Source: an uncultured cyanobacterium (GTDB lineage Bacteria; Cyanobacteriota; Cyanobacteriia; Cyanobacteriales; CAWCAG01). Taken from it: a DNA stretch of 64,000 nt. Within the stretch, counting starts at the first letter, position 1, and each line of letters begins with the position of its first letter. Where the stretch lies: assembly GCA_963793425.1 (NCBI GenBank), contig CAWCAG010000001.1, positions 352,001 to 416,000 of the forward strand. The letters are read 5' to 3'. This document shows, piece after piece, positions 3,120 to 53,700 of this stretch. The position numbers were made by a program, and so were the translations under genes. A model generated the notes under the pieces. That model saw only the letters and a program-made list of their open reading frames with translations. It was not told the origin of the DNA and made no database searches.

Positions 3120-3572
3120 GTGCAGATTGTACCGGAGCGAGTGTACCGGAGGTTAGATAAAATGTTTAATATTGTCATTTTCCCCATTGACCAAACCAGA
3201 GAAAGTCGCGATGCGGCCGAAACTGTAGCCAATGTTGTTCAAACATATAACAGCAAGCTATATATTCTGTCTGTGGTGGAAAAACCGACTCCAGGAGAAG
3301 CAACTGAAGTTACTCCGATGAATTCAGCAGAAAACGTCGAAAAGTTACTTCAGGGGGCTAAAGCCATGTTTGCTCAAAAAGGTATTCAAGCTGAGGTGAT
3401 AGAAAAAGAAGGAGTTCCTGCTTTCGTTATTTGTGATGTGGCTGATGAATTAAAGGCGAATCTGATTGTGATGGGTTGCCGGGGTTTAGGCTTGACAGAA
3501 GAAGGTTTATCTGAAAGTGTGACTAACCGTGTGATTAATCTTTCTCCTTGTCCGGTTTTGATTGTACCTTGA
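3120..3572 (+). CDS. Universal stress protein (likely start ATG 3162)
   Basis: LIVMGCRG ... SVTNRVINLSPCPVLIVP; GGAGG before ATG 3162. Confidence 0.9.
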   Translation: MQIVPERVYRRLDKMFNIVIFPIDQTRESRDAAETVANVVQTYNSKLYILSVVEKPTPGEATEVTPMNSAENVEKLLQGAKAMFAQKGIQAEVIEKEGVPAFVICDVADELKANLIVMGCRGLGLTEEGLSESVTNRVINLSPCPVLIVP

Positions 3573-4056: not shown

Positions 4057-4125
4057 TTTCTTGACTCAAACAAAAAGTCCGTTTAAACGGACTTAACATA
4101 TTAGACAGAGAATTAATTCTCTGTC
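4046..4125. repeat. Three adjacent perfect palindromes (REP/MITE-like)
   Basis: CAAGAAATTAATTTCTTG 4046-4063, AAGTCCGTTTAAACGGACTT 4075-4094, GACAGAGAATTAATTCTCTGTC 4104-4125. Confidence 0.85.
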
Positions 4126-4440
4126 CGTCTATTGTCTGTTGTCTGTCTCTATGTGTCTCTTCTTTCCTAACAGTCTCATATCTTTGCTTCTAACGTCGGA
4201 ACAGAGAATAGAAAACGTGCTGCAACCAACTCAGAAAGCGGGATATTTGTTTAAGGCAGGCTTTGATAAAAATTGAGAAAGGATTATTCGGCTGCGAAAG
4301 GTTTTCAATAGCTTTATTTGCCATTTGGCTATACTCTTGATGACCTATAGCTTGAAAGAATTCTTGCGCCTTTACATAGGCTGCTTTAGCTTGGGATTTT
4401 TTGCCTAATTTAGCTAACGTATCACCATAGTTGTACCAAG

Positions 4441-5390
4441 AAATAGCTTCCCCACCGCGATTACCTATTTCCCTTTCTATCTCCAAAGACTGCTGCTGGA
4501 ATTCAATCGCTTGTTGGTATTGTCCTAGGGAATAGTAAGCATTGCCTAAATTGCCTAAAGAAATAGCTTCCCCACGGCGATCACCTATTTCCCTATCTAT
4601 CTCCAAAGACTGCTGATGGAAATCAATCGCTTGTTGGTATTGTCCTAGGGAATCGTAAGCATTGCCTAAACTTGCCTAAAGAAATAGCTTCCCCACCGCG
4701 ATCACCTATTTCCCTTTTTATCTCCAAAGACTGCTGATGGAAATCAATCGCTTGTTGGTATTGTCCTAGGGATTGGTAAGCATTGCCTAAATTGCCTAAA
4801 GAATTAGCTTCCCCACCGCGATCACCTATTTCCCTAGCTATCTCCAAAGACTGCTGATGGAAATCAATCGCTTGTTGGTATTGTCCTAGGGAATCGTAAG
4901 CATTGCCTAAACCGCCTAAAGAATTAGCTTCCCCACCGCGATTACCTATTTCTCTTTCTATCTCCAAAGACTGCTGATGGAAATCAATCGCTTGTTGGTA
5001 TTGTCCTAGGGAATCGTAAGCATTGCCTAAATTACCTAAAGAATTGCTTCCCCACCGCGATTACCTATTTCCCTGGCTATGTCCAAAGACTGCTGATGGA
5101 AATCTATAGCTTGTTGGTATTGTCCTAGGGATTGGTAAGCATTGCCTAAATTACCTAAAGAAATAGCTTCCCCACCGCGATTCCCTATTTCCCTGGCTAT
5201 CTCCAAAGTTGCTGATGGAAATCAATCGCTTGTTGGTATTGTCCTAGGGATTGGTAAGCATTGCCTAAATTGCCTAAAGAATTAGCTTCCCCACCGCGAT
5301 TACCTATTTCCCTGGCTATCTCCAAAGACTGCTGATGGAAATCAATCGCTTGTTGGTATTGTCCTAGGGAATCGTAAGCATTGCCTAAAC
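4441..5390 (-). repeat. About 8 near-identical 120-bp tandem repeats encoding 40-aa TPR units
   Basis: Units recur at about 4441, 4561, 4682, 4802, 4922, 5042, 5161 and 5280; consensus LGNLGNAYxSLGQYQQAIDFHQQSLEIxREIGxRGGEAxS. Confidence 0.95.
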
Positions 5391-6734
5391 TAGTCAAAGA
5401 AGCGCTCATATTGCCAATCTTGCTGACTATCTTCCGGCCAAGCTACTATTAATAGCCCATAATATTCCACTCGCACAGCAGAATAACCCCGTAAGGTAAG
5501 AAATTCATCACAGTGGCGCAAAACTTTAAAAGCAGCTTTGTATTCTTTTAACTCGAAGCGATGATAGAAAACTTCTAAATATGCTTCCACATCTGCTAAA
5601 GTTTGCCAAGGTTGAGGCTTAAACTGGTCAGAAAAATAACTAATTGCCTTTTCGATGCGCCGCAATCAGTAAACTTTCTTCGGTCTGCAAATGGAGATAT
5701 TGAGCAATTAAAGGTTGAATTGTATAGCCTGCTTCTGCTTCATTAAGGAGGGAACGATTAGCCAACTGTCGCAAAGCTTGCCGCACTGCCAGATCAGAAA
5801 TATTCTCCCCAGGCAACATGATTGCAGCATTTGCGCTATTGATAGCTACTCGATAGATACTGAGGTTAAGCAAAAATTCTCGCTGCTGGGGTGTTAGCCG
5901 TGATAGATGCTGCTGCAATAACCAAAATAGCTGCACATCTTCTTTGCCGCGATGGATTCCTGTAGCTTCTTCCCCCAAGGTGGTTAACTGCAACTTCCCA
6001 GCTTGACTAATCTTACCTTGATAATATGATCGCAAAAAGCTAGCGGCTAAACGTAAACTGAGGGGATGTCCATCTAGGCATTGCACTAAGTTAGCTTTCG
6101 CTTCTGGGGAACCGACAATACCCTCGGCGGTTAAAAACTTTGTTCCTTCTTCGGTGGAAAACCCTTTTAAAGTGGGCAACCAAGTTACAAATTCCTGCCA
6201 ACCGGGAGGCTTTTCTCTGGTGGTAACTAAGATAATGCTGTTGTTTCCTCTGGTTTGCCATTCCTGGAAAAACTGGCCATAATCGGGGTTACGCCATCCT
6301 CCCAATTCGTTTAATAAAGATTCGAGATTATCTAAAACTAAAAAGTAAGGCTGTTTGTTGAGGAAACTGAGGAAAAAGTTTCGCCTTTCTTGGGAAGTTT
6401 GGGGCAGATCCTGCGGAGTAAGTCCAGCCAGTTTAAACAGTGCTTCTTCGACAAAGAGGTCGAAACTAGGTGCAGAGGCAAAATCAACCCAAAGCTTATT
6501 AACAAACTTTTCTGTATACTCCCGGAAACAGTAGGCAGCTAATGAGGATTTACCTGCACCTCCTAAACCATGAATACCGATAAGATGATGGGAAAATGAG
6601 GAGAGATAATTTTGGAGAATTTCTAGCTCATTTTCCCGCCCTTGCCAATTGCTTAAGCGAGGTGGTTCGGAAATTAATCGGGAAGTTGGTGGGGTCTTCT
6701 GCTTCTGGGATTTTTCTACTATTTTGAGAAGATC

Positions 6735-6748
6735 CTGCGGCCCCGCAG
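6735..6748 (-). promoter_or_regulatory. GC-rich hairpin 4 nt downstream of the in-frame TGA (candidate recoding signal)
   Basis: Minus strand reads TTC TGA CTGA CTGCGG-GG-CCGCAG. Confidence 0.5.
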
Positions 6749-6752
6749 TCAG

Positions 6753-7160
6753 TCAGAAGTTAGCATCACCTTTGACTTCTTTAATTTCTACATTTTTATC
6801 TCCTAGCTGTACATTACTGTTATCCTGGGCGACAAAACGTACAGAGTTATCTTCTCGTTTGTCGTTGTAAATCTGATTATAAATAGGTCGAGCCAGATTA
6901 CTAATTTCTTCAGCAAAAGTGGAATCGCTTTCCATGGCTCCCTTTAAATAAGGTACAATCACCTCAACATTGGCAGAATTTTCTACCGTTGCGATCGCAC
7001 TTTCTGCTTCCGGGTTTCCCTGCAACTTTCCTTTAATCTTCTCCTGTAAAGTTTTTGCCTTGGCGATCGCACTTTCTGCCAGTTTACCGACTCCTAATTC
7101 CACCGCTGCACCAAAAGCAACTTCAGCAATTTTTTCTGCGGCCAAAAATTCCAATGTCAT
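6753..7160 (-). CDS. 135-aa helical protein (Bell/HeLo-like by resemblance) with an N/Q/V-rich C-terminal tail; in frame with the downstream NB-ARC
   Basis: Hydrophobic N-terminal helix; IKGKLQGNPEAESAI; MESDSTFAEEI; tail DNSVRFVAQDNSNVQLGDKNVEIKEVKGDANF. Confidence 0.75.
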   Translation of the reverse strand: MTLEFLAAEKIAEVAFGAAVELGVGKLAESAIAKAKTLQEKIKGKLQGNPEAESAIATVENSANVEVIVPYLKGAMESDSTFAEEISNLARPIYNQIYNDKREDNSVRFVAQDNSNVQLGDKNVEIKEVKGDANF

Positions 7161-8151: not shown

Positions 8152-11100
8152 CTACCTCCCCACAGATTCTCCTTGCTGTTGTGGTGCAATGCTAGTTTGC
8201 CCAAAGCCGCCGAATAAATCATTAAGTTTGACAGTGAAAGTCACATAAGGGCCTCCGGCTGAACGGGAACCTGTGAAATCGCGATCGCTGACTTCCCCTA
8301 ATGAGTAACCCCCAGCGAGACGGAGGTTGGGGGTGAGGTAGTAACCGAGTTCTGCGGAAAAGGCGGTTTCTGTGTAACCAGCAGAGGGTTGAGTAATCCA
8401 TCTTGCTTCTCCTACGAGATCGAAGTTGTAGCCAAGGCGATAGGTTGCTCTGAGTTGTGCTAAGGAGACGGTGCTAGCGGCTACAAAGTCATTGGCTAAG
8501 TAGGTGGTGCTGGTGCGGAAGGCATACTTGCCGTAGAACTCCCAGCGCCAACTGGGGGCGTAAATAGCTTCGGCAGAGAAGAGATGTTCCTCCGAACCAG
8601 TGCCGCCACCAAAGAGGATGGTGTCAGGGATGGTGGCGGGGTTGCGACGATATTCGTATTTTAATAAAGCATTCCAAGTATCGTTATGGGGATCGCGGTA
8701 AGCTAAACCCAATTTTAGGTCGGTTGATGCTCCTAAATCAGCGAGGGTTGTGTTGGCAGAGTGAGCTTGACGAAAGTTGAATAAGGCGGAAATGCTAGGG
8801 CTGATTTTGCCTAATGCCGAAGCAGAAATAACGGTGTTGCTGCCTTGGGAGGAGGTGCGATGTTCAAATAAGGCGCTGGCTTTGAAACGAGGATCGTCGG
8901 TATATTCTAAACCAACACTGTAGCTATCTCCGTCGGTTACTCCTAATAAAGAACCATTTTCCCCTGTGGCAATGGTTTGATTGATGCCTTCTCCTACTAC
9001 ATTGGAGTTGAAGCTACCGAAAACCCTTTCATAAGTGAGGTTGAGTTTTAACCCAGGGGTGATGTCCCAACGATGTTGTAAACCGATGCCTCCTTGAGCG
9101 GTATAATTGTTGGCACTGCCCAGGACTGTATAACGACCAGTTAGGCGGGTGTTGTCGGTGAGATTATAATCTCCTTTAACCCCTAAGCTAGTGATAGATT
9201 GTCCGGCAAACTCTCCACTAGTGTAAAAGTTTTGCCCTAAAGTAACATTCACCCCCGGCACAACTCCCCAATCTAATTCAAAAGCGGTGCGATCGCCGCG
9301 AGAAGCGTTACTATTTCCTAAAATGGTAAGTTCATTGAGAGCTTTGAAGGTAAGATTATTAGTGAGGGGAACGGTGAGGCGCGATCGCAGTTGATGGGAT
9401 TCACCATTAAAATCAGGGTTGATTCTGTCTTCCCGGTTGCGATAAATCCAATCTAAATCAACGGTCGATGTACCCAGCTTTTGTTGAATACCTAAAGAGG
9501 CGGTGGTGAGGGAGTTATCAACAATGCTGTTAGACTCAAAACTATTGAATCCTCCTTCTAAATTAAAACCTTCCAAGACATCGCCAATGGGAGTAAGGGT
9601 TTGTCTGCGGATGCCTTGATTTTCTGTGTGGTCGTATTTGGCCCGCACCCTGGTACTTTCAGAAAGACGGGCTTCAACTTCTGCCCCGTAGCGAGTTTGC
9701 CCAGGAACAAAACTTACTGTCGCATTGTTAGCAAAGCCGCTATCGGTGGAACTATAATAGGCACGTCCTCGGAAACTTTCTCCTAGCTTACTTTCCAGTT
9801 GGAAGCGATAAGCTGAACCAGAAACAGAACCCAACTCCGGGGAAGTATTGTTGGAATGGGCATATTCACCAATAAAGCGAGAACCTTCTCCCAAGGAAAC
9901 TAGGAGATCCGTTCCATAGAGTTCAAAGTCGCGATCGCCTTGATCTTCTTTGAAATAAGTAGCCCCCAACCAGCTTTCGCTATTTAATCCTCTAGCAAAG
10001 TTGTAACGCAATCTGCCGCCATAAATATTGGTGTTGCTAGCATCTCCTTCATATTGATAGGTGGCAACAATCCGCCGGACTAAAACGTTTCCCTCTTCAT
10101 CAATATCAGTACGGAGTATGGGTTCGCGGAAGTTTACCGTCCCTCTATCATAATCAATTTCATAATCAGCCCCTAAAATTAAGCGTTCCCGTTGCAGAAC
10201 AATTCCGGGACGTTCTAATTCTTCCAATTCTAAATAAATATCTTCACTACCAGGGACAACTAGGCGTTGGGAAAGGAAGTAAATACCGCTTGTACCGTCA
10301 GGATTAAGGGTATCTCGTTGAAAACCTTCGACATTGTTGGCATAGAAGCCGCTAATTTGCAGATTGCCTAAATTAAAGTTGCCACTGAAGCCGTGGAATT
10401 GACGATTCAGGGCAGTGAAAAGTTGGGAATTAGTGGCAAACTCCTCTGTGTTATAGTCTCCCCACATAAAGTAGTCGGGGCTAGCATTGGGAATACCGGG
10501 GGAACGTTCTAAGCGTAGGTACAAACTATCTGTAGAGGGAGTTAGCACTTCGGAAGTGGAACTATCGCCATAAATTGAGTATTGATTTTCTGAGGTTTGG
10601 TACTCCCGAAAGATACGGTTGCGGCAATCGCAATCAAGATTTAAAGGACGTTGATTGTTATATGCCCCAGTGTATAACCATTCCCCAATTGTTCCTGTAG
10701 CAAAAACAGCCGTACTAAAATCCAATTCTGTGGAGTTGTCACCATCAGCAGGTAAAAAGTCTTTAAAGCTACCATGAAAATCTGTACCGCGAGATCCCCA
10801 CCGCAGGTTAATCACCCCAGAGATTAAACTAGGACGCAAGGATGTTTCTAATTGCAGTTGGGTATAAGCTTCTAATTCATTAGTTTGTGCTTTAATAGTA
10901 ACGGTTTGCGCCTTGGTGACGGAACGTAAATTAGTGGTAAAACGTCCTTCTAATACCTCCAACTGAAAGCCAGGTTGATCTGGTTTATAATCTGCTTCAA
11001 TAAACTCTCCGGCAGTGGAAGTTAAGGTAACAATACCATTCCAATTGGAGAGGTTGCCATTTTCATCTAATAATTGTCCCTGAACCGTAGCAGTGGAACG

Positions 11101-11745
11101 ACCGTTAGCTTGAATAGCAGTTTCTCTAGTATCAACAATAAGTTGGGTGGGTTGCCCCTTAACTTGTACTTCCACAGAAGCGGTTTCCGAGTTGGCAATG
11201 CTAGCAGTGATAGTGTTGTTGCCAGCCGTAAGGGGAACACCATACCAAGTTTGAGTAATAAGATTATTAATATTATCTGTTTCTGTACGTCCAATTAAGG
11301 AAGAATCTACAGCATTGCCATTGACTTTAAGTTCTACTTCTGTTCCTACTCTGTAGCGAAGAATGACTGTGGCAGCAGGGTTATCAAGGATACTGCCAAC
11401 GGTAGGAGAAATTATGGTTAGGGGAGATTGTTCAGTATTGAGAACAGTTTCTACATTTTCTGTTGTCTCTTCTGCCAAAGGAATAGTTGTTTCGTTTCCC
11501 TGCATCTCTTCTGTAGAAGAAACAGCTTCTACATTTCCTGTTGTCTCTTCTGTAAAAGGAATAGTTGTTTCATTTCCGGTTATCTCTTCTGTAACAACAA
11601 AAGTTCCTGTTCCCTGTTTCCCGTTTCCTGTTTCCTCTTGAACAAAAACATCCTGAGAAGCTTGGGCGATCGCAGGAAAGAAAACCAAATTCGCACCACC
11701 TGCGAGCGCGCCAATTATTTTTACTTTTTGTTTTCTTAATTTCAT
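8152..11745 (-). CDS. Large exported protein: Ig-like N-terminal domains plus a probable outer-membrane beta-barrel
   Basis: Signal peptide; long C-terminal run of amphipathic aromatic strands (LRATYRLGYNFDLVGE, ELGYYLTPNLRLAGGY). Confidence 0.75.
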   Translation of the reverse strand: MKLRKQKVKIIGALAGGANLVFFPAIAQASQDVFVQEETGNGKQGTGTFVVTEEITGNETTIPFTEETTGNVEAVSSTEEMQGNETTIPLAEETTENVETVLNTEQSPLTIISPTVGSILDNPAATVILRYRVGTEVELKVNGNAVDSSLIGRTETDNINNLITQTWYGVPLTAGNNTITASIANSETASVEVQVKGQPTQLIVDTRETAIQANGRSTATVQGQLLDENGNLSNWNGIVTLTSTAGEFIEADYKPDQPGFQLEVLEGRFTTNLRSVTKAQTVTIKAQTNELEAYTQLQLETSLRPSLISGVINLRWGSRGTDFHGSFKDFLPADGDNSTELDFSTAVFATGTIGEWLYTGAYNNQRPLNLDCDCRNRIFREYQTSENQYSIYGDSSTSEVLTPSTDSLYLRLERSPGIPNASPDYFMWGDYNTEEFATNSQLFTALNRQFHGFSGNFNLGNLQISGFYANNVEGFQRDTLNPDGTSGIYFLSQRLVVPGSEDIYLELEELERPGIVLQRERLILGADYEIDYDRGTVNFREPILRTDIDEEGNVLVRRIVATYQYEGDASNTNIYGGRLRYNFARGLNSESWLGATYFKEDQGDRDFELYGTDLLVSLGEGSRFIGEYAHSNNTSPELGSVSGSAYRFQLESKLGESFRGRAYYSSTDSGFANNATVSFVPGQTRYGAEVEARLSESTRVRAKYDHTENQGIRRQTLTPIGDVLEGFNLEGGFNSFESNSIVDNSLTTASLGIQQKLGTSTVDLDWIYRNREDRINPDFNGESHQLRSRLTVPLTNNLTFKALNELTILGNSNASRGDRTAFELDWGVVPGVNVTLGQNFYTSGEFAGQSITSLGVKGDYNLTDNTRLTGRYTVLGSANNYTAQGGIGLQHRWDITPGLKLNLTYERVFGSFNSNVVGEGINQTIATGENGSLLGVTDGDSYSVGLEYTDDPRFKASALFEHRTSSQGSNTVISASALGKISPSISALFNFRQAHSANTTLADLGASTDLKLGLAYRDPHNDTWNALLKYEYRRNPATIPDTILFGGGTGSEEHLFSAEAIYAPSWRWEFYGKYAFRTSTTYLANDFVAASTVSLAQLRATYRLGYNFDLVGEARWITQPSAGYTETAFSAELGYYLTPNLRLAGGYSLGEVSDRDFTGSRSAGGPYVTFTVKLNDLFGGFGQTSIAPQQQGESVGR

Positions 11746-11871
11746 AATCTAAAGTCCATTGGGAGACGGGGAGGGGGAAACGGGAAAGTAATAAGTAATA
11801 AGTAATAAGTTGGGAATTTACTATTTTTTACTCTCTTGCACGATTAGCAACTAGCAACTAGCAACTAGCCA

Positions 11872-13371
11872 TTAGTTAATTTCTTCTTGAAAAGTAGGTG
11901 TCACTGCAAAGTTCATCCTTGCCATGCCGCCGGGGGCGAGACGTACTAGCCTTGATTGGCTGTTGCGTTCGCTGAATTTGATATTTGGGGCGATGGTATA
12001 ACCAGGAAGACTAGTAAAATCTAGAGTTCCGGCATGATAACCAGCGTGTACCGAAGCAACGGAAAACAAACCATCGGCATCTGTTGTAATGCGGTTGCCG
12101 TCTTCCAACATAATTACCGCATTGGGAACTCCTGGTTCATTGTTTTGCTGTTCCCCATCAAAGTTTTTATCTACAAAAACTCGACCAATCAAAGTACCAC
12201 AGTCAGCGAGGATGCCGGGGTCAACCCGTAAGCGATGGTTGGTTGGGCCATCCTTAACCCGGAAGTCATTGTCACTACGTTGGGCATTAACAACCGCAGA
12301 ATTAATCCCGGAACCTCTCAAAGAATCGGGAGTTAACTGGGCGGCGTAAACAATATTTAGTACTTCTCCTGGAGGAATTGCTGCGCCTAGTTGCATTGTC
12401 ACCGAACTACTTTCTCCGGTGGTAGTAACCTCAACAGGTTGTCCCTGCAACTCTCCCTGCACAGAGTTCGGCAAAAACTTAAACCCAAGGGGCAAACGGT
12501 CATTAATAATTGCTCTATTTAAAGGTACATCTGACTTATTCCTGATACTAATGCGGTAAAGTATCGTATCTCCGGGTTCAGCCGTAGCGCGATCGCCAGT
12601 TTTAACAATATCAATTTGGTCAGCTTGGCACATTACTGTGTCAAACTGCAAAGCAAACAAAGTTAGTCCTTGTGCTTCTGCATTGAATACTTCCACCATT
12701 TGATCAGTAATTTGCGTTCCCCCTGATACAGAGATGGGTTGCCCATCCAAGGATGTAGCCCGGTAACGGACAATACTATTGTTACTACTGCCAACACTGC
12801 TAAGGATTTCAATTTTGATTCTGCGCTGGGTATAAATAGAATCAGTAGGAGGATTAATAACCAAAATATAAGTTTGACCAGGGTTTGTCTGCCCTTTAGC
12901 CGGATCAAAGAGGAAGTTGTATTGCCCTTGATTAATATTGTCAAGGGGAAAAGGATTGATATTTGTACTGTTAGGATTCCTTCCCCCAGGTACACCATTA
13001 TTTGGAGTGTCAGGAAACTCTGTCTGGCTTAAATTCACCAACCTACCTAATTCCGAACCTGTAGTATCTCCAGGGTTTGGTTCATAAAGTGCAACGGTAA
13101 AGCCACCATAATTATCAAGCACATTGCCGCCACAACCGAGAATGCGACCAAGAGGATCAACTAAAGACTCTGGCTTAGTACCTAAAGTTGTAGAAAAGCC
13201 TTGAAACTTAGTATCTGTGCTAGGGTCTTGGTATTCCACTTGGGCTTGGTTATTAATAGCTGCACGAATAGTCTCAGCAGAGGTTTGGGCCAACACAGAC
13301 ATTTGAGTTGAGATAACAGTCCCGATTGCTAATGCGGCAGTGATAGGTTTTGAGAAAGTAGAGATGTTCAC
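11872..13371 (-). CDS. DUF11 + SdrD-B-like exported protein
   Basis: Signal peptide; IDIVKTGDRATAEPGDTILYRISIRN ... INDRLPLGF; GRVFVDKNFDGEQQNNEPG. Confidence 0.85.
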   Translation of the reverse strand: MNISTFSKPITAALAIGTVISTQMSVLAQTSAETIRAAINNQAQVEYQDPSTDTKFQGFSTTLGTKPESLVDPLGRILGCGGNVLDNYGGFTVALYEPNPGDTTGSELGRLVNLSQTEFPDTPNNGVPGGRNPNSTNINPFPLDNINQGQYNFLFDPAKGQTNPGQTYILVINPPTDSIYTQRRIKIEILSSVGSSNNSIVRYRATSLDGQPISVSGGTQITDQMVEVFNAEAQGLTLFALQFDTVMCQADQIDIVKTGDRATAEPGDTILYRISIRNKSDVPLNRAIINDRLPLGFKFLPNSVQGELQGQPVEVTTTGESSSVTMQLGAAIPPGEVLNIVYAAQLTPDSLRGSGINSAVVNAQRSDNDFRVKDGPTNHRLRVDPGILADCGTLIGRVFVDKNFDGEQQNNEPGVPNAVIMLEDGNRITTDADGLFSVASVHAGYHAGTLDFTSLPGYTIAPNIKFSERNSQSRLVRLAPGGMARMNFAVTPTFQEEIN

Positions 13372-50731: not shown

Positions 50732-53700
50732 ATGGCTGACTACAAATGGAAAAGGTTTTGGTGTCCACGGGATGGCAAAATCAACTTAGGAGATGACGGT
50801 TATCTCTACGATCTAGATTCAGCCTCCTATAGGTATCACGAAAATGCTTATCTGGTTACTTTCCAAGAAATAGCTGATGTACCTTGTTTAGTTTTGTTAG
50901 GAGAACCAGGTATTGGTAAATCTAGAGTCTTAGACGAGGCGCATACTCAAACAACAAACTCATCTCTTCATTTTGAATTAGGAGAGTACGGTTCAGATAC
51001 AGAATTATGTAACGACATTTTCAAACATGAAGTAGTTCAAAATTGGCAAGAAGGAACCAACAAACTAGAACTTTTTATTGATAGTTTAGACGAAGGTCTT
51101 TTATCTATACCAGTATTAACAAGAATTTTAAAGCGAAAACTCGAAAACTTACCTTGTAGTCGCTTAAAGTTAAGAATCACTTGTAGAACGGCTGATTGGC
51201 CTAATTCTTTAGAAGAAAAACTTAAGGAACTATGGGGCAAGGATGAGGTAAAAGTCTATGAGTTAGCACCTTTGCGACGCATAGATGTTGTTGAAGCAGC
51301 TAACACAAATCAAATAGATGCAGATGCTTTCTTGCAAGAGATATACGCAAAGAATGCCGTACCCTTAGCCTTCAAACCAATTACTCTAAAGTTTTTGCTT
51401 GATCTTTGTAAACAAGGGCAACAACTTCCGTCAACTCAGAAGGAATTATACGAAAAAGGTTGTCTTTGGCTTTGTGAAGAACATAACCGTGATCGCCTAG
51501 AGGCTGGTCACAAGGGTAAGTTTAAGGCAGAAGAAAGAATACGAATAGCTGGTAGAATTGCTGCTGTAACTTTGTTTGCTAGAAAAGCTGCTGTTCGTAC
51601 AAATATAGATGATGTTGGAGAAAGTAGTATACAAGTCCGTGAGTTGTATGGTAAAGAAAAATTCACTGATTCTGAACTATTAATTACTGAAGAAGCTATA
51701 GAAGAAGTTTTTTCTATTACTCAGCTATTTCGTAGTGCAAACGGGATGGCTTTTGTTCACCAAACATACAGTGAATTTTTAGCAGCTTGGTATTTAAATG
51801 AGCATAACGTACCTTTAACACAACTCAAAAGCTTGTTTTTCTCCCCAGGAGATTCTGAAAATAAGCTAATTCCTCAACTTCATGAAACTGCTGCTTGGTT
51901 AGCAAGTATGAAGCGTGACTTTTTAGAAGAAGTAATGAAATCAGATCCGGATGTTCTTTTAAAAAGTGACGTTACTACAGAAGATAGTGTTCGAGAAGCT
52001 ATTGTAGAAAATTTGTTATGCTTACTCGAAGATAAAAAACTATTTAATAAAGACTTAAATTATAGAAAATATGAAAGATTAAAACATGGACAACTAGCAT
52101 CTCAACTACGTCCTTATGTCAAAGATTATAGGGAAAATAATAATGTCAGGTACGAAGCTATTTGTATTGCTGAGATTTGTAAGCTACAAGAACTTCAAGA
52201 AGATTTAGTAAATTTAGTATTAAATTCATCAGAACCAATATATCTTCGCTCTAATGCAGCTTGTGCATTAAGCTCAATTGGAGATAGAGAAACCAAAATG
52301 AAGTTGAAAGGTTTAGCTTTTAACGAACTCGAAGAAGATGAACATGAGAGCATAAAGGGCTGGTGCTGGTCAGCAATTTGGCCAGACACAATCACCGCAG
52401 CAGAGCTTTTTGAAAATTTATCTGTACCGAAAATAAATCATAACTATCCCAGCATATACGAAGTATTCCTTGAGCGTAAGTTAGCAGAACATCTCCAAAA
52501 AGATGACATTTTGTTGGCGCTTAATTGGCTAGAGGAGGAAGGTTTTCATCATAAATTTAGAGGGGCAGCAAGTTCAATAATCATAAAAGCTTGGGAATAT
52601 TTGAATGAGCTAGGTGTATTGACTAGTTTTGCAAAAATAGCAGCCAAAAGATGGCAAGAAAGTCGGGATATTGTAATAGGAAGGTATGAAAATCAGCTTA
52701 GGAACTTAATTTTTAAAGATGCGCCAAAACGTCGTTCTTTGATTGAAAAAGTAGTCAAGTTTATAGCTCAAGAAAATGAATATTCAAAGCATAAAGTATC
52801 TTATTTGAAGACGAAAATAACTTTAGAAACAGATGAAATTATTAATATTACTGAGTCTAATGAAATTTTCAAGGAGAGATTTTCTAATTATTTGGGTTCA
52901 GTTGATATTGATTCTGAATCTGCTAAGAAGCAAAAAGCATCATACGAAGAAATGCTAAGCAAGTCTGGCTATGAAGATAATATTAATTTCCTTAAGTTGC
53001 CTTCTCAAGAAAAGATTAGGTTACTGTTGAATAAAATAGAGTCAGGTGAAATTTTGTTATGGCGTAGCCTTATCGAAGAAATAAATAATAAGGAAGATGG
53101 TCAGCTAGAAAACTTATCACAACAAGTAGATATAACCTCTTTTCCAAACGGACAAAAAATAGACGATATTACTCAAAAAAGAATTGTACAAGCTGCAAAG
53201 AAATTTACATCACGTTTCAGTCCAAGTCTTTGGAGATTCTACAATTATTTGCTAAATGTCGAAGTTTTGTTATGTTTTTTGAAAAAGCTTAGCAAGAATA
53301 TTAAAACTAGTTATTACTTAATTAGAGAAATAAACAAACTCCTTAGTGTTGATTTAACTTCTTATCGTTATAAAATATATTTATTAGAGCAATTAGACTA
53401 CACAACTATAAAACTAATTCTTAGAGAAGAGTCAAGTATTGTCAAACAACGAACTAGAAAGATATGGCGTAAATGGGAATCAGCTTTTTCATCTTGCTTG
53501 CCGAATCAAAGTGATAATTGCGAAATAGATACAAAGCAAATTAACTTAGAATTAGAGGATATCAATAATCGCATCTTTGAAACATTAGATTTTAAAACTG
53601 CACAACATATATCTGCAAGCAGCTACAGATTTATAATTAATAAGATTGACTCTATTTGGAATGACAATATAGCAGACTTACTTCTTTCTCTAGCAGCTTA

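Follow-up and report, generated by a model that had tools for sequence, protein, structure and literature searches.

In a 64,000-nucleotide stretch of DNA from an uncultured cyanobacterium (contig CAWCAG010000001.1, positions 352,001 to 416,000; this whole stretch is called the window throughout), a minus-strand open reading frame (ORF) of 135 codons encodes a small predicted cell-death effector and ends in TGA, and the same frame continues past this stop into an NB-ARC-TPR receptor of the NLR type. The in-frame stop, its codon context and the frame behind it are conserved in relatives, together with a single copy of an amyloid-type signalling motif before the stop, coding constraint on both sides and, in the largest subgroup, an RNA hairpin. 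The best reading of this arrangement is probably programmed stop codon readthrough, a reading drawn from sequence comparison, in which one gene would provide much free effector and little of a fusion that joins effector, motif tag and receptor.

On the minus strand of the window, the end of the effector ORF reads AAC TTC TGA CTG ACT GCG GGG CCG CAG. An earlier, sequence-only reading of the window had described a 135-aa ORF stopped by the TGA at 6755–6753, a following run of 149 codons free of ATG, GTG and TTG until TTG 6303–6305, and both Walker motifs (6546–6569 and 6318–6344) upstream of that first canonical start; the sequence, the ORF list and a codon scan bear out these coordinates and features throughout. 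As the window is given, the post-stop frame stays open as far as TAG 5640–5642, and in addition to its NB-ARC module it matches AAA_16 (Pfam, E 2.1e-9). By Pfam and translation, a collinear NB-ARC receptor with TPR repeats adjoins the effector, as is required of the Bell/BASS-NLR pairs discussed below, and a consensus scan of the effector–receptor interval found no terminator-like site on the minus strand.

A profile built from eight relatives detects the effector in 136 of 401 sampled genomes of one cyanobacterial order, nearly always as open frames of 130–190 aa. An exhaustive profile search found 658 library proteins at E ≤ 1e-3, and the best 150 are mostly 130–155 aa long. For a survey of stop codons, all of the top 91 effector-only profile matches were taken, ignoring the frame of the downstream sequence; three rows were dropped (one fusion running off its locus and two 5′ fragments) and 90 ORFs were scored. 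Behind 50 of the 90 ORFs, Walker A lies within 130 codons in frame 0 with no further stop; it lies in the other two frames behind 18 and in frame but with stops behind one. No Walker A follows within 130 codons for 21 ORFs, seven of which also continue in frame: three into a variant P-loop, three into a non-NLR frame of 129–137 aa, and one into a decayed frame. The 50 in-frame loci stop at TGA (38), TAG (11) or TAA (1), and at the sole TAA locus an ATG of its own follows 5 codons later. Among the remaining 40 ORFs the stops are TAA (20), TAG (11) and TGA (9). The base at +4 is C in 43/50 in-frame loci versus 12/40 others. Immediately after the stop, the 50 in-frame loci carry CTG (23), CTA (10) and, in the rest, CTC, CTT, CCC, CCG, CAG, ATA and others, and most of these codons other than CTG cannot serve as start codons. 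No ATG, GTG or TTG is found 20 or more codons before Walker A in 23 of the 50 loci, and none at all in 10, the window included.

With the junction-spanning query P0064, all 33 spanning matches among the 150 listed hold exactly one in-frame stop (28 TGA, 5 TAG). The in-frame class extends over 46 genomes and 14 families of one order. The sequence-only reading had placed the stop at an apparent domain boundary; an in-frame stop of TGA or TAG type with C behind it does recur at this boundary in many genomes, and the alignments indicate that the stop is shared by the family and did not arise as a mutation private to the window. In 54 junctions, the three bases before the stop are biased towards N-A-Y (second A in 38/54, third T or C in 49/54), which may be part of the termination context or a mere reflection of tails rich in His, Asp, Asn and Tyr. 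Library protein P0064 (386 aa) has a Trp exactly at the relatives' TGA (...NNLPKD W LNSSERDRTKLTPP); the residue comes either from a genuine TGG or from a TGA that the gene caller translated as Trp, and the protein was not used as evidence. At L055, L089 and L096, a TGA CTG junction is followed by an in-frame open frame of 129–137 aa with no NTPase (LQPSNQGAKFKPNLDSFGGL...), which may be another partner type for the leaky stop.

Within its own genome, the window junction is more than a chance arrangement. At 61 sites an ORF of 100 aa or more runs on in frame, past its stop, for 300 or more open codons, and only at the window locus does the first canonical start lie more than 72 codons past the stop. 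Genome-wide stop usage is TAA 52.5%, TAG 26.3% and TGA 21.2%, and only 9% of the TGA stops have C at +4.

Between the stop and the first canonical start, 12 independent close pairs, with each locus used once, differ at 24/15/45 sites of codon positions 1/2/3 (chi-square p = 2e-4), and the same pairs show 28 synonymous and 45 non-synonymous codon changes; a comparison of pre-stop codons was ungapped, was spoiled by tail indels (insertions or deletions) and was disregarded. Receptor frames behind such stops also show a third-position excess (11 pairs), and at 22 of 30 loci the receptor frame meets no stop anywhere in the DNA retrieved, a length of at least 513 codons. Because of the codon-position excess and the long open receptor frames, we conclude from the comparisons that the frame behind the stop is read, even where no start codon exists. 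In relatives, coding is kept on both sides of the stop, as the sequence-only reading would have it.

A coding constraint that begins directly past the stop may also be expected if two proteins are made: ribosomes would terminate and instantly start again on a non-canonical codon, either the first one past the stop (CTG in the window) or one close to it. The receptor would then carry neither effector nor motif, and the frame would be shared only because stop and start abut. The CTG found after the stop in the window and in 23 of the 50 in-frame loci suits such a restart, as does the accessible part of the Bell/BASS/NLR preprint, in which Bell/NLR pairs are usually tightly coupled or overlapping (10.1101/2020.01.06.895854). 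However, CTA (10), CTC, CTT, CCC, CCG, CAG and others stand after the stop in the remaining loci, and restart would not select against TAA, which is used in 1/50 loci versus 52% genome-wide. The receptor would, moreover, lack the N-terminal motif that two-gene relatives always carry, and restart gives no reason for a hairpin 8 nt past the stop. We consider restart unlikely on these grounds.

The in-frame class and its two-gene relatives differ in the number of motif copies. In two-gene relatives, the next protein, in most cases an NB-ARC or NACHT receptor, carries a second copy of the effector tail at its N-terminus, as in L101 (tail YNNYGRDQFNVENMQGN, receptor N-terminus MNRQYDNRGRDQFNFENVHGN) and L085 (tail NYGGTNYQTKTGQDNTNFLGGEHHH, receptor N-terminus MSQSNYGGTNFQTQTGKDNTNFLGGEHRH); matched tails and N-termini also occur in L114, L111/L117, L093, L119 and L049/L072/L073. 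The tail of the window effector aligns with the tails and receptor N-termini of two-gene relatives ending ...VNF. In the in-frame class, the window included, one motif copy is present, before the stop, and the receptor-side repeat is absent; as judged from these sequences, the repeated motif that marks Bell/BASS-NLR pairs would arise in this class only through readthrough. The idea of matched adaptor motifs, put forward in the sequence-only reading, is borne out by these sequences, with two copies in the two-gene relatives and a single copy before the stop in the in-frame class.

If the stop is read through, the in-frame loci would give a product that is collinear with two-gene receptors from the receptors' own Met. 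Both share the order motif, linker, FVGR.ELE.LH or HWQGR helix and Walker A, with the stop directly after the single motif; the window ...QDNSNVQLGDKNVEIKEVKGDANF-stop-LTAGPQDLLKIVEKSQKQ...SNWQGR aligns with the two-gene receptor M...NDQSKVTQIAHLEAGVVNF-SVEQKELVELLEARSK...AHWQGR, and near-identical receptors occur in both designs (L057 and L072). True stop-less fusions, P0092 and P0122, hold the effector domain, motif region, NB-ARC and TPR_12 in one protein. Such fusions are rare, 2 of the best 150 representatives in the exhaustive profile search that found them; a homolog search for longer (fused) proteins gave none at E ≤ 1e-5, which is weak evidence. Since true fusions without a stop exist, a fused effector–receptor protein is viable, yet the stop is kept.

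RNA structure accompanies the stop in the largest subgroup. Across its 34 junctions, RNAalifold predicts a 5-bp stem after an 8-nt spacer past the stop. Pairing holds in 95.9% of cells versus 81.2% in column shuffles (0/500 shuffles reach this value), and double-sided changes in the stem number 29 cells versus 8.3 in shuffles (0/500); slid controls, with the partner moved by 1–3 columns, reach at most 43% pairing. The stem pairs switch among C-G, U-A and G-C. Because a synonymous third-position change in the 5′ arm accompanies an amino-acid change (Arg, Gln, Pro) in the 3′ arm, the covariation points to an RNA rather than a protein constraint. The same stem is found after TGA and after TAG. 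A covariance model of stop plus hairpin, applied to 151 sampled genomes of the order, matched 37 sites, spread over 27 of them; the stop type of these sites is circular, as the model was trained on it. In 30 of 30 loci from the model, a stop stands at the expected position between an upstream frame and an in-frame downstream frame, and in 13 of the 30 the upstream protein falls outside the effector profile. The model also found the full design in two genomes outside the order and, in the genome of the window, two further loci, of which one is apparently intact and the other decayed.

Outside the window, locus L129 (G000 contig C9, minus strand, stop at plus-strand 53553–53555) has an apparently intact version of the same design. 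Its effector of 156 aa begins MEPIIPTL and was not among the top matches of the first profile; its junction reads TGA CTG AAC TCG CCT GGG GAA CAG G, which holds the conserved hairpin, and continues in frame as LNSPGEQ...GMGGVGKT for at least 478 open codons. A decayed version of the design, likewise outside the window, lies at L064/L128 (G000 contig C9:340692-341700, plus strand), where the tail motif lies in a duplicated segment of about 70 nt; the duplication causes a frameshift ahead of the TGA CTA GAG TCG CC junction, and the NACHT-type receptor frame stops after 128 codons.

For the window itself, the sequence-only reading had proposed a GC hairpin, CTGCGG-GG-CCGCAG; the palindrome is present at 6735–6748, but it is not conserved in relatives and its region folds no better than shuffles. 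Single-sequence folds of six junctions were likewise no better than shuffles (z −0.8 to +0.7). Several members of the window's subgroup (L036, L051-L053, L074, L076, L099, L102 and L112) keep the heptamer CTGGTAG within the first 15 nt past the stop, read in different codon phases (CTG GTA G.. or.CT GGT AG.). At some loci, by eye only, this heptamer can pair with the last effector codons with the stop in the loop (L099, CUACCA-C UGA CUA C-UGGUAG).

A hairpin a few nucleotides past UGA might also serve a dedicated decoder, whereby the stop is recoded either by selenocysteine (UGA plus a hairpin like a selenocysteine insertion sequence) or by a suppressor tRNA. Among the 50 tRNAs that Aragorn lists for the genome there is no tRNA-Sec and none whose anticodon is TCA, CTA or TTA, and the tRNA-Trp has an ordinary 5-bp anticodon stem. 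TAG stands at the same junction in 11/50 loci, Rfam gave no match in 15 junction loci, and the site falls in a linker, not at a catalytic position. A dedicated decoder is scarcely credible in view of these findings. The stop and hairpin could instead form some other nucleic-acid signal, either an RNA processing or stability site that sets the ratio of effector to receptor mRNA or a joint for recombination of effector modules, with the receptor translated by some further route. The modular junction, which stands after at least two effector families and before several NTPase types, would suit a signal of this kind, as would the retention of the CTGGTAG heptamer in differing reading frames. The strict frame, the avoidance of TAA and the missing start codons are left unexplained by it, however, and the stem is short with no T-run after it; we give this explanation little credence.

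The intactness of the window receptor bears on whether the stop could be a simple nonsense mutation. In the window, single-base indels at five places (near 5655, 5406, 5207, 5043 and 4674) break the TPR part into three frames. Public data that cover the stretch are short-read contigs (not the reads themselves) of four runs of one sediment-metagenome study, possibly the assembly's own source. Wherever the window has one of its five frameshifts, these contigs differ from it by an indel (5655 or 5649; 5405-5407; 5207; 5043/5044, one run only; 4674, one run only), and when the five contig indels were applied by script, a single frame of 135 aa, TGA and 853 aa emerged, ending at TAG 4190–4192. The TGA at 6753–6755 is unchanged in contigs of runs X1 and X2, which may themselves be the assembly's source; both X1 record 8, whose sole listed difference is at 7116, and X2 record 15, which has no difference, cover 6753–6755. 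On this evidence, which falls short of independent proof, the frameshifts resemble assembly errors or private variants, unlike the stop. Because the five frameshifts are absent from the public contigs, the window receptor is probably intact. The assembly may hold indel errors in this repeat-rich gene, and possibly elsewhere too.

The sequence-only reading had itself offered a nonsense mutation as an alternative, with the downstream indels as a hint of decay. Under this alternative, a fused gene in decay would have acquired the stop as a private mutation, and the receptor would be a pseudogene. Besides the five frameshifts in the window, this is favoured by a sister species in which the effector gene survives as a fragment only (87% identity over 55 aa, then broken) and by the clearly decayed further locus of the window's genome. 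The indels are real in the window, but all five are missing from the public contigs, which contradict each of the frameshifts and without them open an 853-codon frame; a stop at the same boundary is common to 50 or more relatives, and true fusions are rare (2 of 150 best representatives). A private nonsense mutation is therefore highly improbable. The sister species' fragment is L031 (G001 contig C4:281341-281505, same genus), which runs out of frame after the 55 aa and has no receptor behind it.

The effector matches no Pfam or NCBIfam family, and a search of PDB sequences gave no match; the ESM Atlas returned unnamed cyanobacterial clusters only, one with 24% PF20701. An AlphaFold2 model from 61 sequences (mean predicted local distance difference test score, pLDDT, 70) has five helices over residues 8–102 and a disordered tail over residues 102–135. 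With this model, Foldseek found no match at E ≤ 1e-3, and the best score of a VIA fold search was Z 5.7, to generic helical bundles. An N-terminal helix of the M-E-P type, as in Bab/Agp, recurs in effector relatives. The effector domain may be described as Bell-like, a label that leans on its neighbourhood.

Several points weigh against programmed readthrough. An excess of third-position differences past the stop is also what would be seen if translation began at the first post-stop codon. The covarying hairpin is absent from the window's own subgroup, whose alignment shows no common stem; the palindrome of the window lies merely 4 nt past the stop, and the 71-nt region has a z of +0.29 against shuffles. 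A 5-bp stem is weak, and we know of no evidence that such short stems raise readthrough in bacteria. The surveyed loci are mutually related, so that the counts overstate independence, and the 54-junction group behind the context logo was partly selected by context. A normal start upstream of Walker A, which the sequence-only reading had named as evidence that would speak against its proposal, is absent from the window and present in several of its nearest relatives: possible starts stand 25–48 codons before Walker A (ATG in L036/38/39/40, GTG in L051-53 and TTG in L034), and the receptor of these close relatives could start on its own. The public contigs come from a single study that is possibly the source of the assembly, and the public runs listed for the locus include no RNA run. 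Set against these points, the leaky UGA proposed in the sequence-only reading gains support from the conserved stop, its type, the C at +4 and the frame; the fusion protein is a predicted product.

Taken together, a working model for the locus emerges, in which readthrough and its level, the decoding tRNA, templating by amyloid and a role in defence are all inferences. The locus would be one transcription unit, a variant of the cell-death systems built from a Bell-like effector, an amyloid motif and an NLR, with effector and receptor sharing one reading frame and a leaky stop as their sole separator. Most ribosomes would stop at the UGA and release the free 135-aa effector, composed of the helical domain and the amyloid-type tail, and a small fraction would read the UGA by a near-cognate tRNA to yield a 989-residue effector–motif–NB-ARC–TPR protein. 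The decoding tRNA would most likely be tRNA-Trp, because no suppressor tRNA is present. With no canonical start and no motif of its own, the receptor would obtain a templating motif only via readthrough. The TPR part would sense a trigger and the NB-ARC part would oligomerise, and the motifs clustered in this way would seed the pool of free effector; the seeded effector would damage the membrane and kill the infected cell.

The stop may, beyond setting a ratio, be a regulated step of an immune switch, an extension of the readthrough model that we regard as a long shot. A healthy cell would, on this equally doubtful account, make only harmless free effector, and whatever made termination at UGA or UAG less efficient during infection would increase the fusion and so arm or fire cell death. 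Triggers could be suppressor tRNAs brought by phages, phages with a recoded TAG or TGA, attacks on release factors or general translation stress, and the hairpin would tune the threshold. The near-exclusive use of TGA and TAG, the stops that phages recode, fits such a switch; simple leakiness fits it equally.

The features of the window locus are collected in Table 1. Eight YQQAI[DE]F[HQ]QQ units were counted in the TPR part. Because the flanking genes are housekeeping genes (pgk at 1773–2972, Usp at 3120–3569) or surface-protein-like (8155–13371), the surroundings of the locus are no defence island.

Table 1. Layout of the effector–receptor locus; positions are those of the window.
Feature	Positions	Strand	Basis
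Whole unit: effector ORF, in-frame TGA and NB-ARC-TPR receptor frame	4190..7160	-	Three-frame translation
Effector ORF, 135 codons, ATG at 7160	6756..7160	-	ORF list and translation
Effector helical domain, residues 8-102, five predicted helices; helix 1 hydrophobic, Gly/Ala-rich	6855..7139	-	AlphaFold2 model
Effector disordered tail with amyloid-type signalling motif (...QDNSNVQLGDKNVEIKEVKGDANF)	6756..6854	-	pLDDT <50 at residues 102-135; tail alignment
In-frame TGA stop	6753..6755	-	Sequence; public contigs; TGA/TAG at same position in relatives
CTG immediately 3′ of stop, hence +4 base C	6750..6752	-	Sequence
Local palindrome CTGCGG GG CCGCAG, 4 nt past stop	6735..6748	-	Sequence; predicted 4-5 bp stem
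Linker, 35 codons, from stop to start of NB-ARC module (WQGR)	6648..6752	-	Translation; collinear with linker after N-terminal motif of two-gene receptors
NB-ARC NTPase module, residues 40-241 of post-stop frame	6030..6635	-	Pfam PF00931, E 4.3e-8
Walker A, GLGGAGKS	6546..6569	-	Translation
Walker B region, FLVLDNLES	6318..6344	-	Translation
First canonical in-frame start past stop, TTG, 149 codons on	6303..6305	-	Codon scan
Helical spacer and about ten TPR units, in three frames in the window	4193..5640	-	Translation
TAG stop of receptor frame	4190..4192	-	Indel-corrected frame
Terminator-like hairpin and T-run, ~95 nt past receptor stop	4075..4094	-	Consensus scan only

The two-gene relatives of the window locus match, matched motifs included, the Bell/BASS/NLR design as set out in the accessible part of its preprint, in which a small helical effector with a C-terminal amyloid-type motif stands, as here, beside a collinear NB-ARC/NACHT-TPR/WD receptor (10.1101/2020.01.06.895854). 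The class to which the window belongs differs from that design in a receptor with neither a motif copy nor its own start, and in a conserved in-frame TGA or TAG after the single motif. Because the screen of Dyrka and co-workers, by the same portion of text, demanded the motif on both annotated proteins (10.1101/2020.01.06.895854), the in-frame class was invisible to it; the words stop codon, readthrough, in-frame and frameshift are absent from that part of the 2020 preprint (10.1101/2020.01.06.895854). A Bell-type effector with an amyloid motif of ~20 residues acts in antiphage abortive infection by experiment in the Bab/Agp system, according to the accessible text (10.1101/2024.11.07.622273). 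Unlike the window locus, Bab/Agp as described there has a non-NLR receptor, two separate genes and two motif copies, and the same part of the preprint makes no mention of stop codons or readthrough (10.1101/2024.11.07.622273). The all-in-one effector–NLR proteins P0092 and P0122 look as a read-through product would, but with no stop there is no free effector pool from the same gene.

In phage Q-beta, readthrough of UGA extends the coat protein to A1, and viral readthrough structures, that of MuLV included, sit ~8 nt from the stop, a spacing like that of the stem in the largest subgroup here. Poole et al. in 1995 are said to have found UGA-C to be the weakest termination signal in E. coli. Programmed UAG readthrough produces MuLV gag-pol, as described in the accessible part of one account (PMC4178896). 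As is proposed here, a leaky in-frame stop in viral readthrough gives an abundant short product and a rare extended one; the present case differs in that it concerns a chromosomal bacterial immune locus, has a 5-bp hairpin and not a pseudoknot, and is known from sequence alone. Selenocysteine insertion likewise employs a UGA and then a close hairpin inside a coding frame, but here there is no tRNA-Sec, TAG is interchangeable with TGA, Rfam gives no match and the site lies in a linker. A literature search outside subscription journals and preprint supplements turned up no bacterial Bell/NLR locus described with an in-frame stop or with readthrough. The Bell/BASS/NLR system and viral programmed readthrough are known separately; their combination did not come up in this search.

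If the readthrough model is true, these loci would be a rare case of programmed, structure-assisted stop codon readthrough in chromosomal bacterial genes, and in an innate-immune receptor. One gene would set a large pool of effector against few receptor molecules, and the receptor tag would stay identical to the effector tag because both are the same codons. Annotation would, in that case, cut off or miss many cyanobacterial NLR genes.

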